A stretch of 64,000 nucleotides of DNA, taken from NCBI GenBank assembly GCA_944332025.1, contig CALVJB010000002.1, positions 26,566 to 90,565 on the forward strand. Direction: 5' to 3'. The notes under the pieces were generated by a model. That model was not told the origin of the DNA and did not search any database. It worked only from the letters and a program-made list of their open reading frames with translations. A program made the position numbers and the translations under genes. This document shows positions 15,698-64,000 of the stretch, in pieces (positions within the stretch are counted from its first letter, which is position 1; the number at the start of each line of letters is the position of its first letter). Origin of the DNA: an uncultured Bacilli bacterium (GTDB lineage Bacteria; Bacillota_I; Bacilli_A; RF39; UBA660).

Positions 15698-18388
15698 ATG
15701 AGATATATGACTAGTAATGAAATTAGAAAGATGTGGATTAAATACTTTGAAGAGCATGGACACAAATATGTTAAATCTGCTCCCTTAATTCCTATTAATG
15801 ATGATTCACTACTTTGGATTAATGCTGGTGTTACACCATTAAAAAAATACTTTGATGGAAGCATAACCCCTGAGTCACGTAGAATTGTTAATATTCAAAA
15901 ATGTATTAGAACTAATGATATAGAAAATGTTGGTGTTACTAAAAGACATCATACTTTCTTTGAGATGATGGGTAATTTTTCGATTGGAGATTACTTTAAA
16001 GATGAAGCGATAGAGTTTGCTTATGAACTATTAACAAGTAAAGACTGGTTTAATATTCCTAAAGAGAAACTTTATGTAACAATCTATACAAATGATTCTG
16101 ATGCTTATAATAAATGGATAGAAGTAGGAATGGATGAAGATCACATTATAAAACTTGAAGGTAATTTCTGGGAAATAGGAGAAGGTCCATGTGGTCCTGA
16201 TAGTGAGATATTTTATGATCAAGGTGAAAAACTAGATCCCGATGGTACTGCTTGGGAGAAGTTTATTCATGATGAAGATCAAGATCGTTATGTAGAGATA
16301 TGGAATAATGTGTTTAGTCAGTTTAACTCTAAAGCTGGTGTAAAAAGAGAAAAATATGAAGAACTCCCTCATAAAAATATTGATACAGGTGCAGGACTAG
16401 AAAGATGGGCTTGTATCTTCCAAGGTGTTGAATCTAACTTTGAGACTGATTTATTTAAACCAATAATCGAAAAAATAGAAGAACTTAGTGGAGTTTTATA
16501 TAATGGTGAGGTTGCTTTTAAAGTAATAGCAGACCATATGAAAGCGGTAACATTTGCTATTAGTGATGGTGCAAGTTTTGGTAATACAGGACGTGATTAC
16601 GTTTTAAGAAGATTAGTAAGACGTAGTGTTAGATTTGGTAGAACTCTAGGATTTAGTGAACCATTCCTTTATAAATTAGTTCCTACTATTGTTAATGTAA
16701 TGGGAGAAGCTTATCCTGAGTTAAAGAAAAACTCTGGAGAAGTAGCAGTTTATATTCTTGATGAAGAGAAACTATTCTTTAATACTCTAGAAGATGGAGA
16801 AAGACGTCTAAAAGAGATTATGTCTGATGATAATGATAAAGTAATTAGTGGTTATGATGCTTTTAGATTATATGATACTTATGGTTTCCCATTAGAATTA
16901 ACAGAAGAAATTGCTAGTGAGAATGGATATACTGTTAACGCGCAAGAATTTAATGATTATATGACAAAACAAAAAGAACTTGCTAAAAAGAATTCTCGTA
17001 GTAAAACATCTATGGCTACTCAAAAGAAAGTCTTAATGGACTTTACTAAACCTTCAACATTTGTCTATGGATTATATCGTTTGAAGAGTAGTGTTCTTGC
17101 TATAGTTAGTAAAGATAAGTTAGAGAAGTCTCTTGATCACTCTGGTTATATCATTTTAAAGAGAACTTGTTTCTACTCAGAGTCTGGAGGACAAGTATCT
17201 GATACAGGTATGATTATAGGTAAAAACTTTAAAGCAAGAGTTGTTGATGTATTTAAAGGACCTAATGGACAACATATTCATAAAATTAAATTACTTGATG
17301 GAGTTGTTCATGTTAATGATGAAGTAGAAGTAATGGTTGATAAACCTAGAAGAAAAGAAATAGAAGCGAACCACTCTAGTGTTCATATGCTTCAATATGC
17401 TCTACAACAAGTAGTTGATAAAAATATTAGACAAGCAGGTAGTTATGTAGATGATGAGAAACTTAGATTTGATTTTACTTGTCCATCTAAAATTACTGAT
17501 GAAGAAATTGTTAAGACAGAAGACTTTGTTAATAAGATGATAAGTAAAAATATTATAACTTCTACTGAGACTATGCCAATAGATAAAGCGAAAGAATTAG
17601 GGGCAATGGCTTTATTTGGAGAAAAATATGGTGAGACTGTTAGAGTTGTTAAAATAGATAAATCTATAGAACTTTGTGGTGGTACTCATGTTGCAAATAC
17701 TAAAGATATAGGTAAGTTTGCAATATTTAACTTTGAATCTAAAGGAAGTAATACTTATAGAATTGAAGCAGTTACAGGTAGTAGATTAGAGAATACTTTA
17801 TTTGAAGTAATTAAACCATATAATGATGAGATGGTTAAACTATTAATAAAAGCTAAAGAAATACTTGCTCTTGCTAAAAGACAAAACATTAACTTAGATT
17901 TTGATGTTGAAATAGATAATAGTGTACCTACTTCATATAAAGATATTATCTATAATCAAAATGAATTATCTTATGTACAAAGTGAAGTTAAAGCACTTGA
18001 AAAAACTTATAATAATGAAGTAGAGAAACTTACAATATCAAGTTTAGATGCTTATTTAGATAGAGTAAAAGAAGTTAATGGAAAAAAACTATTATACTTA
18101 GAACTTGATAATTTAGAGATGTTTTTAGTAAAGACTATGGCAGATAACTTATGTAATAAATTTGATGAAGTAGTAGTATTCTTAGCTAATATCAAAGAAG
18201 ATAATAGTGTTAACTTTATTTGTCGTAGTTCTGTCTCTTCTGTTAATGCAGGATACATCGTTAAAAATATAACAACTGCCTTTGATGGTAATGGAGGAGG
18301 TAGTTCTACATTTGCTCAAGGAGGTATTAAAGACAAGAGTCATTTAAAAGATATAAAGCAAGCTTTAGAGGATTTAATCAATGAATAA
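15698..18388 (+). CDS. alaS: alanyl-tRNA synthetase
   Basis: 896 aa. Class II motifs (FFEMMGNFSIGDYFK, WNNVFSQF). C-terminal HxxxH editing motif and a C-terminal GGG C-Ala-type domain. Confidence 0.95.
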   Translation: MRYMTSNEIRKMWIKYFEEHGHKYVKSAPLIPINDDSLLWINAGVTPLKKYFDGSITPESRRIVNIQKCIRTNDIENVGVTKRHHTFFEMMGNFSIGDYFKDEAIEFAYELLTSKDWFNIPKEKLYVTIYTNDSDAYNKWIEVGMDEDHIIKLEGNFWEIGEGPCGPDSEIFYDQGEKLDPDGTAWEKFIHDEDQDRYVEIWNNVFSQFNSKAGVKREKYEELPHKNIDTGAGLERWACIFQGVESNFETDLFKPIIEKIEELSGVLYNGEVAFKVIADHMKAVTFAISDGASFGNTGRDYVLRRLVRRSVRFGRTLGFSEPFLYKLVPTIVNVMGEAYPELKKNSGEVAVYILDEEKLFFNTLEDGERRLKEIMSDDNDKVISGYDAFRLYDTYGFPLELTEEIASENGYTVNAQEFNDYMTKQKELAKKNSRSKTSMATQKKVLMDFTKPSTFVYGLYRLKSSVLAIVSKDKLEKSLDHSGYIILKRTCFYSESGGQVSDTGMIIGKNFKARVVDVFKGPNGQHIHKIKLLDGVVHVNDEVEVMVDKPRRKEIEANHSSVHMLQYALQQVVDKNIRQAGSYVDDEKLRFDFTCPSKITDEEIVKTEDFVNKMISKNIITSTETMPIDKAKELGAMALFGEKYGETVRVVKIDKSIELCGGTHVANTKDIGKFAIFNFESKGSNTYRIEAVTGSRLENTLFEVIKPYNDEMVKLLIKAKEILALAKRQNINLDFDVEIDNSVPTSYKDIIYNQNELSYVQSEVKALEKTYNNEVEKLTISSLDAYLDRVKEVNGKKLLYLELDNLEMFLVKTMADNLCNKFDEVVVFLANIKEDNSVNFICRSSVSSVNAGYIVKNITTAFDGNGGGSSTFAQGGIKDKSHLKDIKQALEDLINE

Positions 18389-19319
18389 TTTTTTGATTAA
18401 AAGTGATTCTATAAGTCTTATAGATAAGAAAATAGAAGAACTAATTAAAGAAAAAGGATTTAATGATGTTAGTAAAGCTAGCATTACTACTTATGATTTA
18501 GAAGAAGATAGTATTATAACTCTAATAGAAGATGCTGATACTATCTCTTTCCTTACTCCTAATAAAGTAATAATAGGTAAGAATCTATCTAATAATAACT
18601 TAGATGATAAAGCATTAGAGACTTTATCTAAATACTTAGATAATCCTAATAGTGATGTTTTATTAATCTTTGTAACTACTAATATCGATACAAGAAAAAA
18701 GATAGTTAAAGAAGTTATTAATAAACTTTCTTTAGTCAATATAAGTACTAATACTAAAGAAATAGTTAAAGATATATTAAAGGAATATGATGTAGAATAT
18801 AGAGTTATTAATCTTTTAGAAGAATATTATAGTGAAGATTTAGAAAGACTAATTAGTGAGACTAAGAAGTTAGCTTTAGCTTTCATTAATACTAAGAAAA
18901 TTACTTACAAAGATGCTTTAGATTTATTAGTTAAACCTTTAAATAAACAGGATACTCTTGCTTTTGATTTGGTTCGTGAGATAGCTTTAAAAGATAAGAA
19001 GAAAGCTCTTAATATCTATAATGAATTACTTAGTTATAATATCGAAAGTTATGCTTTATTTGGATTATTAGAAAGTCAATATAGACTTCTTTATCAAGTA
19101 AAAGTTTTAAATAAAAGAAATATTTCCTATAATGATATGGCAAGTATTTTAGATGTACATCCTTTTAGGGTTAAGAAGACTCTAGAACTAGTTAGATATT
19201 ATACTTTAAAAGAGATAAGAAAACTACTTATGAATCTTTCTGATATAGATTATAAAATTAAAAGTGGTATCTATGAAAATAATATAATTATAGATTTGTT
19301 AATATTAAATATCAAGTAA
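18381..19319 (+). CDS. holA: DNA polymerase III delta subunit-like
   Basis: 312 aa. Layout resembles HolA/YqeN (N-terminal alpha/beta, C-terminal helical KKALNIYNELL ... region). Overlaps alaS by 8 nt. Confidence 0.55.
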   Translation: MNNFLIKSDSISLIDKKIEELIKEKGFNDVSKASITTYDLEEDSIITLIEDADTISFLTPNKVIIGKNLSNNNLDDKALETLSKYLDNPNSDVLLIFVTTNIDTRKKIVKEVINKLSLVNISTNTKEIVKDILKEYDVEYRVINLLEEYYSEDLERLISETKKLALAFINTKKITYKDALDLLVKPLNKQDTLAFDLVREIALKDKKKALNIYNELLSYNIESYALFGLLESQYRLLYQVKVLNKRNISYNDMASILDVHPFRVKKTLELVRYYTLKEIRKLLMNLSDIDYKIKSGIYENNIIIDLLILNIK

Positions 19320-19329
19320 TATATACTTC

Positions 19330-19358
19330 TTGATATTTTTCTTCTTTTATGATATAAT
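19330..19358 (+). promoter_or_regulatory. sigma-A-type promoter TTGATA-17-TGaTATAAT
   Basis: Near-consensus -35, 17-nt spacer and an extended -10, 25 nt upstream of the AAGGGGGA RBS and the ATG at 19383. Confidence 0.6.
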
Positions 19359-19382
19359 ATGCACTACATAAAGGGGGATATT

Positions 19383-21050
19383 ATGAAGAATTTAAAGAAA
19401 TATAATTCTAATATTTTTAAAGGAATAGTAAAAGGTTTTGTACTTGGGTTGATTGCTTCTAATGTTACGATTATAGGGAGTAATGCTTTTAATAGTTTTA
19501 GATATGAAAGTGAATTATTAAATGAGAAAAAAGAAAAAGAGAGGAAAGAAAAAGAAGCTTTAAATCAAGAATTTGAAAGTTTATTATCTACTAGTGATTT
19601 AGAAATAAGCGAAGAAGCAAGTGAAGCGATTAATAAAATCTCTTTAGCTCCTCTTAATATGACTTATTTAGAAGATTTTGATATAACAAAAGAAAGTGTA
19701 TCTCTTGCTTATCAGGACTCTTCAGAATTTATTAATCATATAAATACGAGACTTTATGAAGAAGAGAGTAATAGTATTGACTGGGATGAAGCAGCTTCTA
19801 TTATTTATCAAAATGGTATATCAATAGAAGATTTAGATGATAGTATAGAACCTTTATCATTTGATGAAGTAAAAGAGCAAGTAGAGTGGATTGAAGAATT
19901 TTATAGCGAAGTTAAAAGTGACTTTAAAGACTATGATACAAAAGAACTAGCTTGTCTACTTGAAGATTATTCTTTTTTAAAAACTAGTACTGAAAAAGGT
20001 AATATAGTCGCTGAAACAACATTAGATAATATTACTTTTTATCCATTATACTATCAAGAACCTCGTATTTTGAAGGAAGCGACAACTAAGCATGAAGCGG
20101 TGCATTTACTAGTTAATCCTTGTATAGATGTTTCTATTAAAGATATGAGTGGTGGTATAGATGTTTTAAATTTAAATGGAGATGGCAATTACATCGATTT
20201 ATCTAGTTATATATTTAAATTTATAGAAGAGATATATGCAGAACTTTATTCTAAAGAAAAAACTATAGGTATTCAGTTAAGTTATAATAATTATGATGAA
20301 GCTTTAAACTATTTACAAGCAGTACTTGCTTTGGGAGATACTTATCAAGTAGATCTCTTATTACAAAATCTTTTATATAAAGATGCTAGGGGTTTTGTTC
20401 AAGAGTTACCTTCTTTTGGTCCTAATAAAGAAAAGCTTTTACTTGATACTTTAAAATCTATTAAAGCTTTAGATTTATTTGTAAATCCTGATTTAAACTA
20501 TTTATCTTATCTAAAAGATAAATATCCTGATATTAGTTATGAGAAAATGCTTATGGAAATAAAAGATTATTTTATTAGTGGTTTAGGAAAGCTTTATTAT
20601 AATAATTTAATCTTATTAAATGAAAAATATAATCTAACATTAGAAGATAATACTGCTTTAACAATTCTTTACTGGAAATTAATAAATAATGTTAAGGAAG
20701 GAAATATGTATTTAGTAGATGAAGAGGAAACTAACGACTATCTTCTTTATCCTAATAAAGATTTAAGTTATTTATTAAGAGAGTATCCATTATTAAAAGC
20801 TAATTATTCTAATTTAGATATTCATGATTATCATGATATATTTGTAGAATACTTATCTAAAAAATATAACATGGATAAAAATGATGTTTATGATGCAACT
20901 AAAGATACTAGCATTTTAAAGAAAGATTATCAAATGCCTAAAGTATTAGGAGAAGAAAAACAAGAATTTTATCAATGGCTATGGGAAGATAAAAGTGATG
21001 AGATAGATTTATTTAATAGTAGAGAACTTGTAAAGGAAAAAACGAGGTGA
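19383..21050 (+). CDS. N-terminally membrane-anchored hypothetical protein with HEAVH motif
   Basis: TM helix at residues ~15-35, a charged coiled-coil segment, then a large domain containing TKHEAVHLL (HExxH). ORF track begins at 19359, but RBS and promoter support 19383. Confidence 0.6.
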   Translation: MKNLKKYNSNIFKGIVKGFVLGLIASNVTIIGSNAFNSFRYESELLNEKKEKERKEKEALNQEFESLLSTSDLEISEEASEAINKISLAPLNMTYLEDFDITKESVSLAYQDSSEFINHINTRLYEEESNSIDWDEAASIIYQNGISIEDLDDSIEPLSFDEVKEQVEWIEEFYSEVKSDFKDYDTKELACLLEDYSFLKTSTEKGNIVAETTLDNITFYPLYYQEPRILKEATTKHEAVHLLVNPCIDVSIKDMSGGIDVLNLNGDGNYIDLSSYIFKFIEEIYAELYSKEKTIGIQLSYNNYDEALNYLQAVLALGDTYQVDLLLQNLLYKDARGFVQELPSFGPNKEKLLLDTLKSIKALDLFVNPDLNYLSYLKDKYPDISYEKMLMEIKDYFISGLGKLYYNNLILLNEKYNLTLEDNTALTILYWKLINNVKEGNMYLVDEEETNDYLLYPNKDLSYLLREYPLLKANYSNLDIHDYHDIFVEYLSKKYNMDKNDVYDATKDTSILKKDYQMPKVLGEEKQEFYQWLWEDKSDEIDLFNSRELVKEKTR

Positions 21051-21056
21051 TAAGCT

Positions 21057-22286
21057 GTGAATAGTGATAAAATTACAGAAAGAGATAATATTATTAAAAT
21101 GATGGATAATGCATCATCAATTGAGGATCTTTTAAAAATAAAATGGTTTTTTAATAAAAGATTTGGTTCTAAATACTATAATATTAAATATAATGCTGTT
21201 GCAAGAAATATAGAACGCATTTCATATGATACTGCTTTATCAAATGCTCCTTCTATAATTGGCGATTTACTTAAAGGTAGTGCTATAGAAAGCATTAAAG
21301 ATAATTATAATATTACTACAGAAGCGATTAATAGATTACTTATATTATATATTGAGAATGGTACTTATCCTAATAAATTTATACATTTAGTAGATGTAGT
21401 ACCAGAACATGATAGAGAGTTTATTAGTGCCAAGACTGCTATTAAACTTTTTATTGATAATAACGTATATAATATTAAGAAGATCTATGCTGAATTTAAT
21501 TGTAAAACTGAAGAATATAATAAATATTTAAGTATTCTAAAAGCTAAGAACCATTCTTTGTATTTTCTATTTAAAAAATTACAAAAAGAACATAACGATA
21601 AATCTACTTTAGAATATAAAATTAAATTTTATGATAAAAATAGAGAAATTAAACTAAAGACTATAGAGTCTGTTAGTAAATTAAATTCTAAAGAAATATT
21701 AGAAATATTATCTAATCCACATAGTAAAGAATTTATTAATTTTTGTCTTTATTATAAGTTAGATAGTAGAGTCTTAATACAACTTTTAAATGATAATAAT
21801 ACTCTTAAAGAAGAACTTTCTAATAATAAAGAACATATAACTGATATATATAATATATATTTGAGTAAATATAAAGATATAGTTAAAGAGCTTATATATG
21901 AAATTAAGATACTTAGTACAGATGGCTTTAAAGAACCAATAGACTTATATCATTATTATACTAATACGAATTATGATTTAGCAGCACTTTCAAGATTAGC
22001 TTTAACGTTTACTGATATTAAAAATACTAAACTTTTATCTATATATATTGAAAGAAATCCATCTCTTTTTAAAGGCATTGTTCAAAAAGAGATGGATGGT
22101 TATAAGCAAAGAGGAATAATAAGTTGTTCTAAAGATAGTGTTTCTTTTACTAAAGAAGAACTAAATAAAGCGATAGAGGATATCAAAGTAAATAATTTAC
22201 CTATGATTAAAGGTGTTTTATATGGTGCAATTAAAAGACAAGTTGCATTTAGAAATGATTTTACAATGAAAAAAAGTTTGTTTTAA
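21057..22286 (+). CDS. hypothetical protein (409 aa)
   Basis: GTG start 6 nt after a GAGGTGA RBS, 7 nt after the preceding stop. No family recognised. Confidence 0.5.
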   Translation: MNSDKITERDNIIKMMDNASSIEDLLKIKWFFNKRFGSKYYNIKYNAVARNIERISYDTALSNAPSIIGDLLKGSAIESIKDNYNITTEAINRLLILYIENGTYPNKFIHLVDVVPEHDREFISAKTAIKLFIDNNVYNIKKIYAEFNCKTEEYNKYLSILKAKNHSLYFLFKKLQKEHNDKSTLEYKIKFYDKNREIKLKTIESVSKLNSKEILEILSNPHSKEFINFCLYYKLDSRVLIQLLNDNNTLKEELSNNKEHITDIYNIYLSKYKDIVKELIYEIKILSTDGFKEPIDLYHYYTNTNYDLAALSRLALTFTDIKNTKLLSIYIERNPSLFKGIVQKEMDGYKQRGIISCSKDSVSFTKEELNKAIEDIKVNNLPMIKGVLYGAIKRQVAFRNDFTMKKSLF

Positions 22287-22328
22287 TTAGATAATTTGGT
22301 ACAATATATTAAAGAGAGTTGATAAGTT

Positions 22329-22613
22329 GTGAAGAATGAATATATCAAAACAAGACAAGGAACATTTCCTATAAGTGTTTTTGAAAAGGATATGTATGAT
22401 GTTAATCTACCTAAATATCTTGATGATGATATTAAAGCTTTACTTAAAGGAATTAAAGAAAATAGTACTTTACTTGATTGTTTGATGGATGAAGTATATA
22501 GTTCTATTAATGGGGCTTACTTTGATAGACGAATTAGTGAAGAACATGCTGATCATTTGAGAGAAAAATATTTATTATTAAATTTCAGGGAAGGTGATAA
22601 AGATGTTAGATAA
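22329..22613 (+). CDS. small hypothetical protein (94 aa), possible HipS-like partner
   Basis: GTG start. Its 3-prime end overlaps the start of the HipA-like kinase gene by 20 nt. A possible internal TGgTACAAT extended -10 lies at 22297-22305. Confidence 0.4.
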   Translation: MKNEYIKTRQGTFPISVFEKDMYDVNLPKYLDDDIKALLKGIKENSTLLDCLMDEVYSSINGAYFDRRISEEHADHLREKYLLLNFREGDKDVR

Positions 22614-23505
22614 TTTTAATAACTATGAAATAAATAAATTTAAATATTATGATGGAAGAAATGGTAATAAAATATGTCTTTTAGATGAGCATGGTACTAA
22701 ATATATGTTAAAAACACCTCCCGTAAAGAATAATAATACCAAAGATAAGTATTATACTAACGGATGCATTTCAGAACATCTTGGATGTTTAATATATAAA
22801 TGTTTAGGTTTTAATACACAAGATACTAAGCTTGGTATTTATACAATTGATGGTAAAGATAAATTGTGTGTATTATGCAAAGATTTTGAAACAGATAATA
22901 AGAAACTATTTAAATTTGCCGAAATAAAAAATGCTATTATATCATTAAGTGAAAATGGATTTGGAGTAGAACTTTCTAGTGTTTTAGAGGCAATTGAAGA
23001 ACAAGATAATATTAATCCTTTGATATTAAAATCATTTTACTGGGATATGTTTATTGCAGATGCTTTTCTGGGTAACTTTGATAGACATAATGGTAATTGG
23101 GGACTACTTCTTGATGAAACTAATAAAACTAGCGAAATAGCACCTATATATGATTGTGGTAGTTGTTTGTATCCTGCCCTTAGTGATGAAGAAATGAAGA
23201 AAATATTAAATGATCCTAAGGAGATAGATGCAAGAATATATGTTTTTCCTAATTCTATTTTGACGATTAATGATAAGAAAATTAATTATTTTAATTATAT
23301 AAGTTCTCTTGAAAATAAGGATTGTAATGAAGCATTAAAAAGAATAGGAAGAAAAATAGATTTAAATGAGATTAATAAAGTTATTGATGGGATAGAAGGA
23401 ATATCTGATGTAAGAAAAGAATTTTATAAGACTATGTTAAAATTACGGAAAGAAAAGATTATAGATTATTCACTAAATTTATTAGATGAAAAAGAAGGAG
23501 ATTAG
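22594..23505 (+). CDS. short HipA-C-like Ser/Thr kinase (HipT-like)
   Basis: Catalytic-loop-like FLGNFDRHNGNWGLLLDE and IAPIYDCGS parallel HipA LIGNTDDHAKNFSLL and LAPAYDL, recalled from memory; 303 aa. Confidence 0.6.
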   Translation: MIKMLDNFNNYEINKFKYYDGRNGNKICLLDEHGTKYMLKTPPVKNNNTKDKYYTNGCISEHLGCLIYKCLGFNTQDTKLGIYTIDGKDKLCVLCKDFETDNKKLFKFAEIKNAIISLSENGFGVELSSVLEAIEEQDNINPLILKSFYWDMFIADAFLGNFDRHNGNWGLLLDETNKTSEIAPIYDCGSCLYPALSDEEMKKILNDPKEIDARIYVFPNSILTINDKKINYFNYISSLENKDCNEALKRIGRKIDLNEINKVIDGIEGISDVRKEFYKTMLKLRKEKIIDYSLNLLDEKEGD

Positions 23506-24734
23506 TTTTCCTTCTTTTGTTTTTCTAAGTATAAATATATCTCTTTTAGTTTATGTTCATAACCTAAGTCTTTAGGATGATAGTACCTTTTATCCTTTAA
23601 CTTATCAGGTAAGTATTGTTGTTTAACAAAAGCATTTTTATAGTCATGAGGATATTTATAAGTATCACTAGGATTCTTTAAATGTTTTGGAATATCTCCG
23701 ACATTACCTTTTTCTATATCACTTAAAGCTTCATCTAAAGCGATATGAGCAGTATTACTTTTAGGGGATAGAGCCATTTCTGTAACAATAGTTCCTAGTG
23801 GTATTCTTGCTTCTGGTAATCCTACTAATTTAGCGGCTTCTATCGCTGCCATTACTTTAGGTCCAATAGAAGGATTAGCAAGGCCTATATCTTCATAGGC
23901 AATAACTGACATACGTCTAAAGATACTATCTAAGTCTCCTATTGTAATTAATCTTGCTAAGTAGTGAAGAGCAGCATCTACATCACTACCTCTAATAGAT
24001 TTTTGAAAAGCAGATAACATATCATAGTAACCATCACCATTTTTATCAGCATTAAAAACTGGTTTACTATTTATCTTTTTAACAACATCTAAATCTACTT
24101 TAAAATCATTAGTAGAGTAGTAAGATATTTCTAGCAAGTTATAAGCATATCTTAAGTCATTTCCTGATAGTCTAGCAATATAATTAATAGTCTCTTCATC
24201 TATCTTTATATTAGGTAAATAAGGACTTTTAACCGCTCTTTCTAATCCATCTATAATATCATCTGTTGCAAGTTCTTTAAGTTCAAATAATTGACATCTA
24301 GACCTAATAGCAGGGTTAATTGCATGATAGGGATTACTTGTAGTCATACCTATTAAAGTAATAAGACCACTCTCTAAACAAGGTAGTAAGATATCTTGTT
24401 TATCTTTGTTTAATCTATGTATCTCATCCATAATAAGAACTAGTCCATCATACATTTTCGCTTCTTCTATAACAATATCTAAATCTTTCTTAGAATTAAC
24501 AGTAGCATTTAAAAATCTATGTCTTACTCCTAAATCATTAATAATAGCATTGGCAATAGATGTTTTACCTATACCAGGTTTACCATATAAAATCATGGAA
24601 AATAACTTCTTATTCTTTACTAAATTACTAAGAATCATATTATCTCCAACTAAGTGTTTTTGACCTATTACATCTTTTAAAGAATTAGGGGCAAGCTTTA
24701 AAGCTAGAGGTTTATCCATATGTATCACTTCCAT
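23502..24734 (-). CDS. rarA: replication-associated recombination protein A (AAA+ ATPase)
   Basis: GKPGIGKTS Walker A, MDEIHR Walker B, C-terminal MgsA helical domain; 410 aa. Confidence 0.9.
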   Translation of the reverse strand: MEVIHMDKPLALKLAPNSLKDVIGQKHLVGDNMILSNLVKNKKLFSMILYGKPGIGKTSIANAIINDLGVRHRFLNATVNSKKDLDIVIEEAKMYDGLVLIMDEIHRLNKDKQDILLPCLESGLITLIGMTTSNPYHAINPAIRSRCQLFELKELATDDIIDGLERAVKSPYLPNIKIDEETINYIARLSGNDLRYAYNLLEISYYSTNDFKVDLDVVKKINSKPVFNADKNGDGYYDMLSAFQKSIRGSDVDAALHYLARLITIGDLDSIFRRMSVIAYEDIGLANPSIGPKVMAAIEAAKLVGLPEARIPLGTIVTEMALSPKSNTAHIALDEALSDIEKGNVGDIPKHLKNPSDTYKYPHDYKNAFVKQQYLPDKLKDKRYYHPKDLGYEHKLKEIYLYLEKQKKEN

Positions 24735-24804
24735 AATTATTTTATCAAAAAATACTGTTTTTTTAAAGATATTGATGTTATACTTTATTTATGGAGGGTT
24801 TCGT

Positions 24805-25740
24805 ATGGATGAGAAAATAGAAGATTTATATAAAAAATATAAAGAGATAAATGTGATTATAAAAAATAAAACAGAACAGAAGGATAAAGTACTTAGTAGT
24901 TTATTAAAGTCTAAAGTTGGAAAATTATATTTTAGTTTAAATGATGAGCAGAAAAAACTATTTGAAAGTATTTATCGTGACGTTGATTTTTCTAGATATC
25001 TTTATTTGCGAGATGATATTGGAGAACATCAAGAAAAATTAGATGAACTTGCGACTATTATTGTTACTCATATAGATTTTCCTTTTAAGGATAGAGGTCC
25101 TGCAATTTATATTAGTGATGGTGTTGATACTTATAATGCCCTAACAGATGAGAATACAAAAGGTGTTGATACATCTGATAAAGAAGTTATTAAAGAAATT
25201 ATTTCTAATATTTATGGTTTTGAAAGTGAATTTGAAATTTCTGATGTACCACTAATTAAAGTTATTTATGATAAAATAAATAAAAATTTTGCTAATTATA
25301 TAATAGAAGATAATATTTTAAAACAAGTTGAAAGAATACATAGATTAGATAAAATGCATAGTACATATAAAGAATACAGAAGAAATGTTATTACCAATTT
25401 AAAGGAATCTATTGCAAATACTGAGTTAGAAATCAAAAACAGTGATAGTGGCTTTAAATATTTACTTTTATATTCTATTGAAGTAGCTAAATATGAAGTA
25501 TCTTTATTAGAAGGAAAGAGAGTAACTACTATTTTAAAAGAAATAGATGAAAGTAATATGAGTGAAAGTGATAAAGATTACTTTAAAGATGCCCTTGTTA
25601 AAGCATATTATAATTTAACAAATATTGAATTTAGAAAAGAAAGTAAATATTTTGATAATGATAGAGATATTTGTTATGCTAGTTTTGAGACGGCAAATGC
25701 TGAGATAAATAAAAGATTAATTAAAATGAGACAAGGGTAA
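24805..25740 (+). CDS. hypothetical protein, paralog A of a tandem pair
   Basis: GGAGGG RBS before the ATG at 24805. Shares DVPLIKVIYDK and a C-terminal YYNLTNIEFRK ... ETA(N/D)xEINKR(L/M) with the next gene. Confidence 0.55.
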   Translation: MDEKIEDLYKKYKEINVIIKNKTEQKDKVLSSLLKSKVGKLYFSLNDEQKKLFESIYRDVDFSRYLYLRDDIGEHQEKLDELATIIVTHIDFPFKDRGPAIYISDGVDTYNALTDENTKGVDTSDKEVIKEIISNIYGFESEFEISDVPLIKVIYDKINKNFANYIIEDNILKQVERIHRLDKMHSTYKEYRRNVITNLKESIANTELEIKNSDSGFKYLLLYSIEVAKYEVSLLEGKRVTTILKEIDESNMSESDKDYFKDALVKAYYNLTNIEFRKESKYFDNDRDICYASFETANAEINKRLIKMRQG

Positions 25741-25751
25741 TAGGTGGAATT

Positions 25752-26741
25752 ATGCAGTATAATAAAGAAGAATTTAAGTTTTACTATGATAATTATATAG
25801 ATATAAAAAATAGAATAGATGAAACTAAGGGTAAAATAAATGAGCTTTTACAAGATGATAAATTAAATAAAACTATAGATTTTTATAATAGTTTAAATGA
25901 CAATGATAAAAAGATTTTTGATTATATTAATTGTAATATGGGATATGTTAGATATAAATTAAATAAACTAGCACTTGAAAAATTACAAGAATCATTTGAA
26001 AAATTATGTAATGAATTTATAGAAAGCGATGCTTTTCCTTTTTCTAAAGATGAATTTCACTTCTTTGTTAGTAAAGACAGTTATTTAATTGATGCAATAA
26101 CCGATCTAGATACTAGTGAATTAAGTAAAGAAGAAAACATATTTTTAAATGATAGTATAAGTTGTGTATATAATAGTTCAGATTATAATCCTAGTGATTA
26201 TAGTATAGATGATATACCTTTAATAAAAGTATTATATTTGAAAGATAAGCTTAAATATGAAAGAAGATGTTTGCCTTTAGATATAGACAGTATGATATAC
26301 GATATTGACCTTGCTAAAAGAATAGATAATGGTGCTTTTACTTATGATGAAAGAAAATGTAGTTGTCTTCCAGGATGGAAACAAACTCACTTAAAGACAA
26401 AATTGTTAACTCAACAGCAAAGAATTATAGAGAGTGATTCTAGAAATAAAGATTTATTATTATTTTCTATTGACTCAGCTTTTTATGAAATAGAATTACA
26501 AAGTGGAGTAAGAGTTAATGAAATATATGATAGATTAAATAATATGGAAGTTAAAAATGAACATCAAAAGAGAAAAATAGAAAGAGAAAAAGATGCTTTA
26601 ATTAATGCTTATTATAATTTAACAAATATTGAATTTAGAAAGAATAGTGGTTATTATATGGGAAATCATTATATTTTTGCTAGGTATGAAACTGCTGATC
26701 CTGAAATTAATAAAAGAATGTTAAAAATGATGAAAAGATAG
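25752..26741 (+). CDS. hypothetical protein, paralog B of a tandem pair
   Basis: AGGTGG RBS. Clear paralog of 24805..25740 (DIPLIKVLY, YYNLTNIEFRKNSGYY, ETADPEINKRMLKM). Confidence 0.55.
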   Translation: MQYNKEEFKFYYDNYIDIKNRIDETKGKINELLQDDKLNKTIDFYNSLNDNDKKIFDYINCNMGYVRYKLNKLALEKLQESFEKLCNEFIESDAFPFSKDEFHFFVSKDSYLIDAITDLDTSELSKEENIFLNDSISCVYNSSDYNPSDYSIDDIPLIKVLYLKDKLKYERRCLPLDIDSMIYDIDLAKRIDNGAFTYDERKCSCLPGWKQTHLKTKLLTQQQRIIESDSRNKDLLLFSIDSAFYEIELQSGVRVNEIYDRLNNMEVKNEHQKRKIEREKDALINAYYNLTNIEFRKNSGYYMGNHYIFARYETADPEINKRMLKMMKR

Positions 26742-61851: not shown

Positions 61852-62688
61852 ATGAAGATGGTCAATTTAGATAAAATAATTAACAAAGATAATTTAATTC
61901 CTAATTTTAAAGGAAGCCATACTATATACAATTTTAAAATGGATAATGATACTTATTACTTTAAAGAAGTACCTAATAGAGAACTAGTAATGGAAATGAT
62001 TTCTAAATCTATTGCCTTCCTTTTAGGAATACCTTATCTTAAAGAATCTATTGCTATTTTAAACGATAAATATGGACTACTTAGCAAAAGTTATTTAAAA
62101 GATGATAATAAAAGTTATGATTTGCATAACTTAATGCAAAACTACTTTTACGAAAACAATGATGATGAGCTATTAGACTATAGAAAGCTAGCTAGTTTAA
62201 ATAATTTAGAAGATATTTGGTTTGCTCTAGAAGATAGATATGAAGATAAAAATATTGTTAAAAATCTTATGGATGGCATTACTAATATATTTATGTTTGA
62301 TCTATTAGTAGGAGAATCTGATAGAACTTTAAGAAATATAGAAATAATAGAAAGTTATAATACCGTAACACTCGCTCCTTTATATGATACATCAAGCATA
62401 CTAGCTGATAAAAGTACAGCTTTAGGCGTAGATGAAGATGATTATTTAAAAAGTGATTTAGATAAATTAGATAAATTTATAGAAAACTCTGATACTGCTT
62501 ATAAAGAGAAATTCTATAGTTATCTTAATACACTAGACTCTATAGGTATAGAAAAGATAATAGAAGAAACTGAAAGAGAAAATGATTTTATAATAGACAA
62601 TAACTTAAAGAATGAAATAATTACTAAATTTAATAGTCGGATAAATATGTTTAAAGAACATGAAAAAAGAGTTAGTATTTCTAAATAA
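61852..62688 (+). CDS. short HipA-C-like kinase homolog (variant catalytic loop)
   Basis: LLVGESDRTLRNIEII and LAPLYDTSS parallel the HipA catalytic loop and DFG-like region. AGGTGA RBS; 278 aa. Confidence 0.5.
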   Translation: MKMVNLDKIINKDNLIPNFKGSHTIYNFKMDNDTYYFKEVPNRELVMEMISKSIAFLLGIPYLKESIAILNDKYGLLSKSYLKDDNKSYDLHNLMQNYFYENNDDELLDYRKLASLNNLEDIWFALEDRYEDKNIVKNLMDGITNIFMFDLLVGESDRTLRNIEIIESYNTVTLAPLYDTSSILADKSTALGVDEDDYLKSDLDKLDKFIENSDTAYKEKFYSYLNTLDSIGIEKIIEETERENDFIIDNNLKNEIITKFNSRINMFKEHEKRVSISK

Positions 62689-62697
62689 ACTAACTCT

Positions 62698-64000
62698 TTA
62701 ATTTTTATAAAACTCTACTCTATTTTTAAATTCATCTATTCCGATAATTTTTAATAATTGATATAAATTAGGAGTCTTAACTCTACCTGTAAGTAGATGT
62801 CTAATCATCTCACAAACATCTCCTATATGTCCTTTATATAAAGTTGGATCTTCTTTATACATTTTAACACTAGGAGCATATCCCATTTCTTCTGCAAGTA
62901 CTTTAATTTGATTGTACCATTCGTCTTCACTATTAAAGTCCCTGTATATCTCTATATATTTATTAATAACATCATAATCGATTTTCTCATCTATATCTTT
63001 ATAAGTTTCATTTCTATCTTTATAGAATAAATCGTTAAATATATAAGCACTTTCAGTTTTGATATCTTTATATGTTGCAATATCCTTACGAGGTCTTTTA
63101 CTATCACGTTCTATATTTAAGAATGAAATTAACTTATCTTTATCTTGTACCATTAAATCATAGAACACTTCATCGTACTTTTTATAATAGTTTAAAGCAT
63201 CGTTATAAATAGTTTCGGCATTAATTCTTGAAAAATAAGTTCTACAGATATTATTTAACTTCTCCATATCAAATAAAGTTCCACCTGTAGGCATCTTCTT
63301 AAATGAGAACTTAAAATCCTCAATAGATTTATCTTTATTTTGTAGATACCACTCTTCAAAGTTAGTATTTGCTAGTGTTGCAAGATAAAGTCTAACACCT
63401 TCTTTAGGTATACCTGCTTCTTCATAGTAACTAACAGCAAATTCTGGATCTTTTCTCTTACTAAACTTACGGATTTTACCATCTTCTTTTTTAGTAAGAG
63501 GTGCAATATGGGCATACTTACATGGTTTAAAACCTAAAACTTGATTAAGTTGTAAATGTTTAGGGAAACTAGGTACCCACTCATCTCCTCTTAATACATG
63601 AGTTGTATGCATTAAATGATCATCTATAACATGAGCGAAATGATAAGTTGGAATACCATCTTTTTTAAGTATTACTTCATCGATATCATTTTCTGGCAGA
63701 CTAATATCTCCTTTAATTAAGTCATGTAAGATTATCTCATTATGAGAATCCCCTGGTGATTTTAGACGAATAACATAACTATCACCATTATCTAAATGAG
63801 TTTTAACTTCATCAAATGATAAATCTCTATCAACAGCATAACTTCCATAAATACCAATTTTTTCTTTTCTTAACTCTTGACCACTTCTTATATCAGCGAT
63901 TTCTTCTTCACTCATAAAACAAGGATAAGCTTTACCTTCACTTACTAACTTCTTAGCATAAGCTTGATATATTTCTACTCTTTCACTTTGTAAATAAGGC
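62698..64000 (-). CDS. gltX: glutamyl-tRNA synthetase (5-prime partial; runs past the window end)
   Basis: KFSKRKD (KMSKS-like), HVIDDHLMHTTHVLRGDEW motifs. The reading frame stays open to position 64000. Confidence 0.85.
   Translation of the reverse strand, partial: PYLQSERVEIYQAYAKKLVSEGKAYPCFMSEEEIADIRSGQELRKEKIGIYGSYAVDRDLSFDEVKTHLDNGDSYVIRLKSPGDSHNEIILHDLIKGDISLPENDIDEVILKKDGIPTYHFAHVIDDHLMHTTHVLRGDEWVPSFPKHLQLNQVLGFKPCKYAHIAPLTKKEDGKIRKFSKRKDPEFAVSYYEEAGIPKEGVRLYLATLANTNFEEWYLQNKDKSIEDFKFSFKKMPTGGTLFDMEKLNNICRTYFSRINAETIYNDALNYYKKYDEVFYDLMVQDKDKLISFLNIERDSKRPRKDIATYKDIKTESAYIFNDLFYKDRNETYKDIDEKIDYDVINKYIEIYRDFNSEDEWYNQIKVLAEEMGYAPSVKMYKEDPTLYKGHIGDVCEMIRHLLTGRVKTPNLYQLLKIIGIDEFKNRVEFYKN

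Follow-up and report, generated by a model that had tools for sequence, protein, structure and literature searches.

The window analysed here, a 64,000-nucleotide (nt) stretch of contig CALVJB010000002.1 from an uncultured Bacilli bacterium, carries four co-directional genes, P1 to P4, of which the last two form a conserved kinase module. P4 is a short 'core-only' HipA_C-type kinase that, by homology, belongs to the CtkA family and has intact catalytic motifs, and the small gene directly ahead of it, P3, is predicted to encode its cognate helical partner, a putative antitoxin or regulator. With moderate confidence we read P3–P4 as a type II toxin-antitoxin (TA)-like kinase module that lacks a helix-turn-helix (HTH) domain and occupies a fixed position between holA and rarA. 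As a transcription unit the four-gene operon is specific to the lineage, and the conserved functional unit is P3 together with P4. New here is the partner domain, which is absent from the family databases searched, while the module itself is of a known kind, that of kinase TA-type systems.

A phmmer search against PDB sequences aligned P4 residues 8–293 with residues 6–286 of Helicobacter pylori CtkA (PDB 3AKJ, chain 3akj_A) at E=1.5e-80, with about 47–50% identity over the full length, and a family profile of 15 members matched CtkA at E=1.3e-141. A previous reading of this DNA made from its letters alone (the sequence-only reading) had suggested comparing the 303-amino-acid (aa) product with CtkA, which proved to be a close full-length homologue. 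It had also taken this protein for a short HipA_C/PI3-4K-like kinase, and this was supported: Pfam HipA_C (PF07804) matched P4 with 23.9 bits (E=3.7e-5), which is under the 30.5-bit gathering cut-off, PF07804 is precomputed for most P4 homologues, and Pfam PI3_PI4_kinase matched weakly (E=6.5e-3). The accompanying statement that none of the four products has a recognisable function was wrong for P4, a CtkA-family kinase. P4 also matched nine PADLOC models of the PDC-M03A kinase (best PDLC04340, 2.8e-31, residues 8–292), and its relatives are named 'CtkA family protein' or 'HipA domain-containing protein' by NCBI. The family is large, since searches that returned 90%-identity clusters gave at least 4,905 clusters at E≤1e-10 to P4 and at least 6,065 at E≤1e-60 to CtkA.

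P4 carries the FLGNFDRHNGNWGLLLDE / FLGNFDRHNGNWG and IAPIYDCGS motifs, its Gly-rich loop lies at residues 21–26, and HipA N-subdomain 1 is absent. Across 15 diverse members, G21, N23, G24, K26, K40, E61, R164, H165, N166, N168 and D187 are invariant and the catalytic-loop D163 is nearly so. Because the Gly-rich loop, K40, the catalytic-loop residues and D187 are conserved, P4 is very probably an active kinase, putatively of the Ser/Thr type. The exception at D163 is P0053, an Erysipelotrichia member of the family that reads GNSNRHNGNWG, with Asp changed to Asn, and may be a pseudokinase. Recombinant CtkA is an autophosphorylating Ser/Thr kinase (PMC5536186), and structural kinship between CtkA and HipA has been reported (bioRxiv 10.1101/2022.07.12.499685). 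P4 ends in an acidic …LLDEKEGD and, unlike CtkA in the alignment, has no basic tail. Hydropathy analysis detected neither a signal peptide nor a hydrophobic segment in P4, which is most likely a cytoplasmic, intracellular protein.

The partnership of P3 and P4 was examined with tblastn and a survey of open reading frames (ORFs), which covered 70 genome loci encoding P4 relatives, 57 of them with the 5' end of the kinase gene and the upstream DNA present. In 54 of these 57 complete loci the gene immediately ahead of the kinase is a P3 homologue; one of the three partner-less loci is at a contig edge and the other two encode distant kinases (35–38% identity). In about three quarters of the partnered loci the end of the partner gene reaches past the kinase start, by up to 31 nt, and the rest have a gap of 3–72 nt. 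Distances among partners and among kinases are tightly correlated (Mantel r=0.94, and likewise 0.94 without the close clade, reached in 0 of 2000 permutations), indicating that the two are inherited as a unit. The pair occurs in Clostridia, Bacilli and Negativicutes, and on the Campylobacter fetus plasmid pCfviMP1 a 68-aa gene upstream of the kinase is a member of the partner family (hhalign 99.3%, E=2e-20), so that the pair is not confined to one phylum. The proposal of a four-gene functional unit could not be upheld, since P1 is missing or broken in relatives, P2 is confined to the clade, and partner plus kinase is what is conserved.

In type II TA systems the antitoxin combines a DNA-binding with a toxin-binding domain and is encoded ahead of the toxin gene. 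At 18 partnered loci, all Clostridia-type, the partner is about 150 aa long, its C-terminal half being the P3-like domain and its N-terminal half an XRE-type HTH (HTH_26 3.7e-13, HTH_3), and the stop codon of this longer gene overlaps the start of the kinase gene; the kinases with such HTH-fused partners group together. By analogy, an HTH-fused partner followed by its kinase has the classical type II antitoxin–toxin layout. A stand-alone partner of 70–98 aa, as in the window, is the commoner form (37 of 54). Two small co-directional genes that overlap or abut and are inherited together, as in type II TA systems, are present, while the DNA-binding part of the antitoxin is absent in P3 and present in the 18 related loci. 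Profile scans gave no HTH match in P1, P2 or P3, in agreement with the earlier remark that the locus has no HipB-like HTH gene. The further remark that two large proteins occupy the HipB position is misleading, since in relatives the HTH is fused N-terminally to the P3-like domain itself. In other lineages, ORF inspection without a domain scan revealed no evident separate HTH gene upstream of short partners.

P3 encodes an acidic, helical protein with 16 close homologues. Its start is an ATG in nine related genomes at the position of the GTG in the window, and its ratio of nonsynonymous to synonymous substitution rates (dN/dS) against these genomes is 0.17–0.48. The homologues, the conserved start position and these ratios indicate that P3 is a real gene under purifying selection, so that the 94-aa ORF picked out in the sequence-only reading is conserved and under selection in relatives. 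Partners of the 54 loci share the core LPxYL…(Y/L)LDCL…E(L/V)YGSIN…I(S/T)EEQAxYLRxKYL, for which no family was found in Pfam, NCBIfam, PADLOC or PHROGs. In L034 (8142–8813) the partner core stands in frame behind an ORF resembling a low-molecular-weight phosphotyrosine phosphatase (MVKVLFVCLGNICRSPMAE…), and in L039 (9235–9993) behind one of QueH/DUF208-type appearance, in both cases with no intervening stop. Either the fusions are genuine or they arise artificially from the choice of the first start codon; if real, the joining of a phosphatase to a kinase partner, as in L034, would be notable.

The AlphaFold2 model of P3 (predicted local distance difference test (pLDDT) score 78, predicted template-modelling score 0.70) has a hairpin at residues 5–14 followed by helices. 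Because this hairpin is missing from the 70-aa family members, the conserved partner core is predicted to be a three-helix bundle. A profile of 14 diverse partners found no match among PDB sequences (best E=0.14), and Foldseek with the P3 model returned nothing at E≤0.001. HipS, HipA N-subdomain and Stl chains were not among the fold matches listed for P3, and an Stl-like fold, considered as a candidate, was set aside because no Stl chain was among them. HipS consists of five strands and three helices (PMC10627512). The suggestion that the 94-aa ORF is HipS-like was thus not supported by sequence or fold, the three-helix core differing from the five-strand, three-helix HipS.

Members of the family occupy varied chromosomal sites and further contexts that include integrative and conjugative elements (ICEs), plasmids and toxin islands, and some lie beside other HipA genes. 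One locus lies within a conjugative element that also carries TraG, a MobL relaxase, a VirD4-type coupling protein and DNA methylases, and one is near YoeB/Phd. On the C. fetus plasmid the pair adjoins Fic, and on a Megamonas plasmid the kinase lies beside Fic/VbhA, Fst, ArdA and SSB; the 136-aa gene upstream of the Megamonas kinase was rejected as a partner, being unrelated to P3. CtkA-like kinase genes repeatedly adjoin Fic/Fido-family genes, some with VbhA antitoxins, in Helicobacter, Campylobacter and Megamonas (L076 8346–9215; L077; L078 2481–3547; L079 4926–5741; L090 2595–3074; L091 4089–4655), and in two Clostridia loci (L025 8427–9035, L033 10902–11564) a downstream ORF looks Fic-like by eye only. 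Other HipA genes, a resolvase and a restriction-modification system are also often close to CtkA-like kinase genes. Kinases borne on plasmids or ICEs (P0138, L079 3962–4924, L078 3959–4936) have basic tails that resemble type IV secretion system (T4SS) signals. In the alignment, the tails of P0138, L079, L078 and P0174 read …KRRR, …KKLRR, …RVMNR, …YRGYER; most chromosomal Firmicute kinases aligned, including P4, are without such a tail, although P0174 has one.

In the window and in nine related metagenome-assembled genomes (uncultured Bacilli or 'Tenericutes'), the module lies between alaS–holA and the convergent rarA; the one closed chromosome among the related genomes measures 1.52 Mb. The dN/dS of P4 is 0.08–0.11, equal to that of alaS and rarA, and P3 evolves 2–5 times faster than P4. 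Antitoxins usually evolve faster than toxins. No mobile-element or T4SS genes were found among the neighbours scanned. The fixed locus and the housekeeping-level constraint suggest domestication.

The layout of the locus is given in Table 1. All four ORFs of the sequence-only reading (555, 409, 94 and 303 aa), with the 20-nt overlap of P3 and P4, were found, and so was its near-consensus extended promoter, which also proved to be conserved in relatives. This promoter is the top-scoring sigma-70-type site in 18300–25000 (11/12 plus TG). Since the window DNA is AT-rich (22–31% G+C) and promoter-like sites are common in it (65 observed against 50 ± 7 in shuffled sequence), a consensus match by itself proves little; the stronger evidence is conservation, as the same −35 element and TGnTATAAT are kept in relatives L002–L005 and L008, where the promoter stands directly ahead of P2 and is predicted to drive it. 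P1 and P2 are separated by 6 nt. P3 and P4 each have a Shine-Dalgarno (SD) sequence of their own, AAAGAGAG being that upstream of P3. For P4 the ORF of the sequence-only reading stood, and its start probably needs a small correction: because the strong SD GGAAGGTGA lies just ahead of ATG 22603 and the alignment with CtkA begins at P4 residue 8, P4 probably starts at that ATG, which would reduce its overlap with P3 to 11 nt. P4 and rarA are convergent, their ends overlapping by 4 nt, and the hairpin across them is likely a bidirectional terminator. P2 and P3 share a reading frame, and the possibility that they are one interrupted ORF was considered and rejected in view of in-frame stops at 22284 and 22323; we treat the common frame as coincidence.

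Table 1 Coordinates of the promoter, genes and hairpin of the P1–P4 locus in the window
Feature	Position	Strand	Basis or remark
Promoter, sigma-70-type, extended −10 (TTGATA-17-TGaTATAAT)	19330..19358	+	best site in region, conserved in relatives
P1, 555 aa	19383..21050	+	ATG 19383 behind ribosome-binding site AAAGGGGGAT; longer ORF from 19359
P2, 409 aa, GTG start	21057..22286	+	ORF
P3, 94 aa, GTG start	22329..22613	+	ORF; HTH-less partner-family member
P4, 303 aa from GTG 22594 or 300 aa from ATG 22603	22594/22603..23505	+	CtkA-family kinase
12-bp hairpin	23490..23518	.	across convergent P4/rarA ends; terminator-like scan

P1 is an acidic protein (isoelectric point (pI) 4.5) with a single N-terminal hydrophobic segment at about residues 14–33 and a stretch rich in Lys and Glu, and its HEAVH motif lies at residue 237; a membrane anchor and the HEAVH motif had both been pointed out before. 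It has no credible match in Pfam, NCBIfam, PADLOC, PHROGs or PDB. P1 is absent from L002–L008, present in L001 as fragments without the HEAVH region, and shortened to 148 aa in L009 by an internal deletion. Because it is absent or decayed in relatives, P1 is a lineage-specific accessory insertion outside the conserved module. A role as a metalloprotease is unsupported, as the HEAVH is not retained in the L001 remnant and there is no family match.

P2, which in this lineage always lies between the promoter and P3–P4, was found in this clade only, its family amounting to 34 clusters among 1.84 billion representative proteins. It is 29–41% identical between relatives in which alaS, rarA and P4 are 83–97% identical, with dN about 0.55 and dN/dS of 0.51–0.66 against 0.05–0.11 for alaS, rarA and P4. 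The protein is predicted to be all-alpha (model pLDDT 90.8) and basic (pI 9.1), with no recognisable fold match, and no Pfam match was obtained for 15 members of its family. As a candidate for the missing HTH or DNA-binding part, P2 has neither a Pfam match in these members nor similarity to the HTH-fused partner; its pI is the sole feature that hints at nucleic-acid binding. No conserved third gene was found beside short-partner modules in other lineages. P1 and P2 would be passengers on the same transcript or modulators peculiar to this lineage, and neither is a general component of the module. In three profile comparisons the best-conserved segment of P2, residues 367–393 (22155–22235, …AIEDIKVNNLPMIKGVLYGAIK), aligned in the same register with P3 residues 33–61 (22425–22511, …LLKGIKENSTLLDCLMDEVYSSIN), an insignificant alignment (hhalign probability <1%, E 0.06–0.2), and a shared motif (KGVLYGAIK and GELYGSIN) is not claimed. 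Two P2-family proteins of about 800 aa, P0252 and P0253, are tandem duplications with two matched stretches.

In relatives the holA–rarA interval is a hot spot for insertions. There, proteins of 448–485 aa with pentapeptide-repeat C-termini are encoded between P2 and P3 (two genes in L008, 6812–9686) or after P4 (L006 10909–12685; L007 6444–7883), the insertion in L006 coming with a duplicated 96-aa 3' fragment of rarA, and L001 (5950–6933) and L009 have an extra 327-aa gene after holA. Downstream of rarA, two uncharacterised genes without a Pfam match, 24772–25740 (+) and 25752–26741 (+), precede mutS. The former is fast-evolving (32–72% identity), and its apparent dN/dS ranges from 0.46 to >2, the high values being probably inflated by poor alignment. 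Elsewhere in the window, a 278-aa ORF at 61852–62688 (+) codes for a second kinase of the short HipA_C-like type (HipA_C 2.9e-5, PDC-M03A 6e-18), which is about 34% identical to P4 over the catalytic loop only and has no upstream partner ORF. It is convergent to a glutamyl-tRNA synthetase gene at 62698–63915 (−) (tRNA-synt_1c 2.1e-31), GltX being the classical target of HipA; P3–P4 likewise lies a few genes downstream of alaS, and the proximity to synthetase genes may be coincidence.

Among known systems, CtkA (H. pylori JHP0940; 3AKJ/3AKK/3AKL) equals P4 in size, and the two share the GxNGNK Gly-rich loop, the YMxK lysine, the GNFDRHNGNWG catalytic loop and the (Y/F)DCGS Mg site. They differ in that CtkA has an acquired basic C-terminal secretion tail and a location in the cargo slot of the tfs3 ICE, neither of which applies to P4, and in that CtkA is interpreted as a host-directed pro-inflammatory effector and P4 is most likely intracellular. 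Tfs3-dependent activity requires the CtkA tail (roughly 25 residues, …KRRR), which also occurs on Fic and PZ39 (PMC5536186); the shared tail was seen in L076. No partner accompanies H. pylori ctkA, where the gene ahead of it is on the opposite strand and tblastn found nothing, and tblastn likewise detected no P3-like partner in Helicobacter sp. NHP21005. Gene calls alone show none in H. bizzozeronii or H. suis, where the upstream position holds Fic, a 50-aa ORF or nothing called and Fic genes are recurrent kinase neighbours. In the literature searched, CtkA was nowhere connected with a partner gene, and the terms 'CtkA family' and 'CtkA-like' did not occur.

The closest published layout, compared by description, appears to be hipRG, a putative TA system of five modules in which HipR, an HTH/'Stl-like' putative antitoxin, accompanies the short core kinase HipG (PMC8262856). 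Both have a short core Hip kinase (279–321 aa) that lacks N-subdomain 1 and whose Gly-rich loop is close to the N-terminus and has no adjacent Ser/Thr, and an upstream partner with an HTH and a second helical domain, the latter being true of the HTH-fused relatives; the partner in the window differs in having no HTH. PDC-M03, an unvalidated candidate defence system, consists of a HipA-like kinase and a HIRAN-domain protein (PMC13245101). Its likeness extends to the kinase component only, as the HIRAN component is absent and P1–P3 have no HIRAN domain by Pfam and one spurious PADLOC match only.

If P3–P4 is a TA-like module, the two genes would be translated from one mRNA with translation coupled through their overlap, and P3 would bind P4 and keep it inactive. 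When P3 is titrated or degraded, free P4 would phosphorylate an essential intracellular protein and cause growth arrest; in the HTH-fused relatives the partner would also autoregulate transcription. HipA targets GltX and HipT targets TrpS (PMC8262856, PMC10627512), and by analogy the target of P4 may be a translation factor or an aminoacyl-tRNA synthetase. Several observations weigh against this reading. All ten related genomes have the pair in one and the same place, and the dN/dS of P4 is about 0.09, which is untypical of selfish TA systems; the family is rare on plasmids (5 of 72,556 records), phages (2 of 50,697) and viral contigs (10 loci in 2.9 million); P3 has no DNA-binding domain for autoregulation and shares a strong promoter with P2; its fold is a generic helical bundle that gives no mechanistic clue; and a literature search found no experiment on toxicity of the CtkA family to bacteria or on inhibition by P3-like proteins.

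The main rival is a domesticated signalling pair, which we regard as rather unlikely but worth serious consideration. P4 would then be a housekeeping regulatory kinase, with P3 as its regulatory subunit or substrate, that tunes some core process of a reduced genome (translation or DNA repair, for example) and has no growth-arrest or addiction role. The fixed and syntenic locus, the constraint on P4, the conserved promoter with no HTH for autorepression and the lack of mobile-element genes nearby are consistent with it, and conserved Ser residues of P3 (GSIN, ISEE) could be phospho-sites. The family, however, is patchy and found in varied contexts, often beside other toxin genes or in conjugative elements; its HTH-fused members have a classical antitoxin architecture, and the faster evolution of P3 is usual for antitoxins. 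More doubtful is a three-component anti-phage (abortive infection) system in which the hypervariable P2 would serve as sensor or specificity subunit and, on infection, free the kinase from P3. The match of P4 to the defence-candidate model PDC-M03A, the invariable position and very fast evolution of P2 (flanks >88% identical), the hot spot for other fast-evolving genes and the resemblance of the P2 and P3 motifs in the same register would favour such a system, and phage-triggered activation has been proposed for hipRG/hipRF by Gerdes et al. (PMC8262856). Yet PDC-M03 is unvalidated and its HIRAN gene is absent here, P2 does not occur outside the clade and short partners elsewhere have no conserved third gene, L008 has two other genes between P2 and P3, and the motif likeness is insignificant, in a P2 without a recognisable fold.

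We consider it very improbable that the locus is a HipBST-like split HipA, with P3 as HipS (HipA N-subdomain 1) and P4 as HipT. Part of the resemblance noted in the sequence-only reading stands, namely a short, HipT-sized kinase without N-subdomain 1 behind a small ORF that overlaps it; the identification of P3 with HipS does not, and there is no separate HipB gene. The predicted core of P3, without the hairpin in the 70-aa members, is unlike the five-strand, three-helix HipS (PMC10627512), and P4 belongs to the CtkA branch, HipA and HipT being barely detectable by profile (best HipA match E=0.33). HipS-type partners of HipI and HipJ are encoded downstream and P3 upstream of the kinase (PMC8262856), yet hipS precedes hipT in hipBST. 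The analogy with HipBST fails on its defining feature, although inhibition of a short Hip-type kinase by a small protein, the logic proposed for both, is still the most plausible one. Just as remote is a secreted host-targeting effector kinase like CtkA, with P3 as its chaperone. Full-length identity of about 50% to CtkA and the record names of the related genomes, mostly gut or faecal metagenome bins, accord with this idea; however, P4 lacks the basic tail of about 25 residues needed for Tfs3-dependent activity (PMC5536186) and ends in EKEGD, neither a signal peptide nor a hydrophobic segment is present in it, no T4SS genes lie in the neighbourhood (alaS, holA, rarA, mutS), and the Helicobacter genes examined, H. 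pylori ctkA included, have no P3-like partner. The TA-like module remains the reading we lean towards. A broader reading, which we hold to be improbable as a whole, would join several of these ideas: a large unnamed TA or defence family beyond the ten published Hip organisations, CtkA as an exapted toxin, and P2 as the trigger in this clade. If true, CtkA would have lost its antitoxin and gained a T4SS tail, and the P3-like motif of P2 (KGVLYGAIK beside GELYGSIN) would compete for the kinase as trigger or sensor of a three-part system.

CtkA has so far been studied only as a Helicobacter virulence factor that acts on human cells. Textbook knowledge is unchanged unless toxicity and neutralisation are demonstrated, and naming the partner domain would let genome annotation recognise such modules. 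The copy in the window has no HTH, is fixed in the chromosome and, in a genome of about 1.5 Mb, is as constrained as housekeeping genes, which makes it a useful example in which to study how toxin-type kinases become domesticated. Nearly all Firmicutes relatives examined and one Campylobacter plasmid relative travel with a small partner, often HTH-fused, and this pattern points to an ancestral intrabacterial TA or defence role of the family, from which CtkA may be a derived, partner-less and secretion-tagged offshoot.

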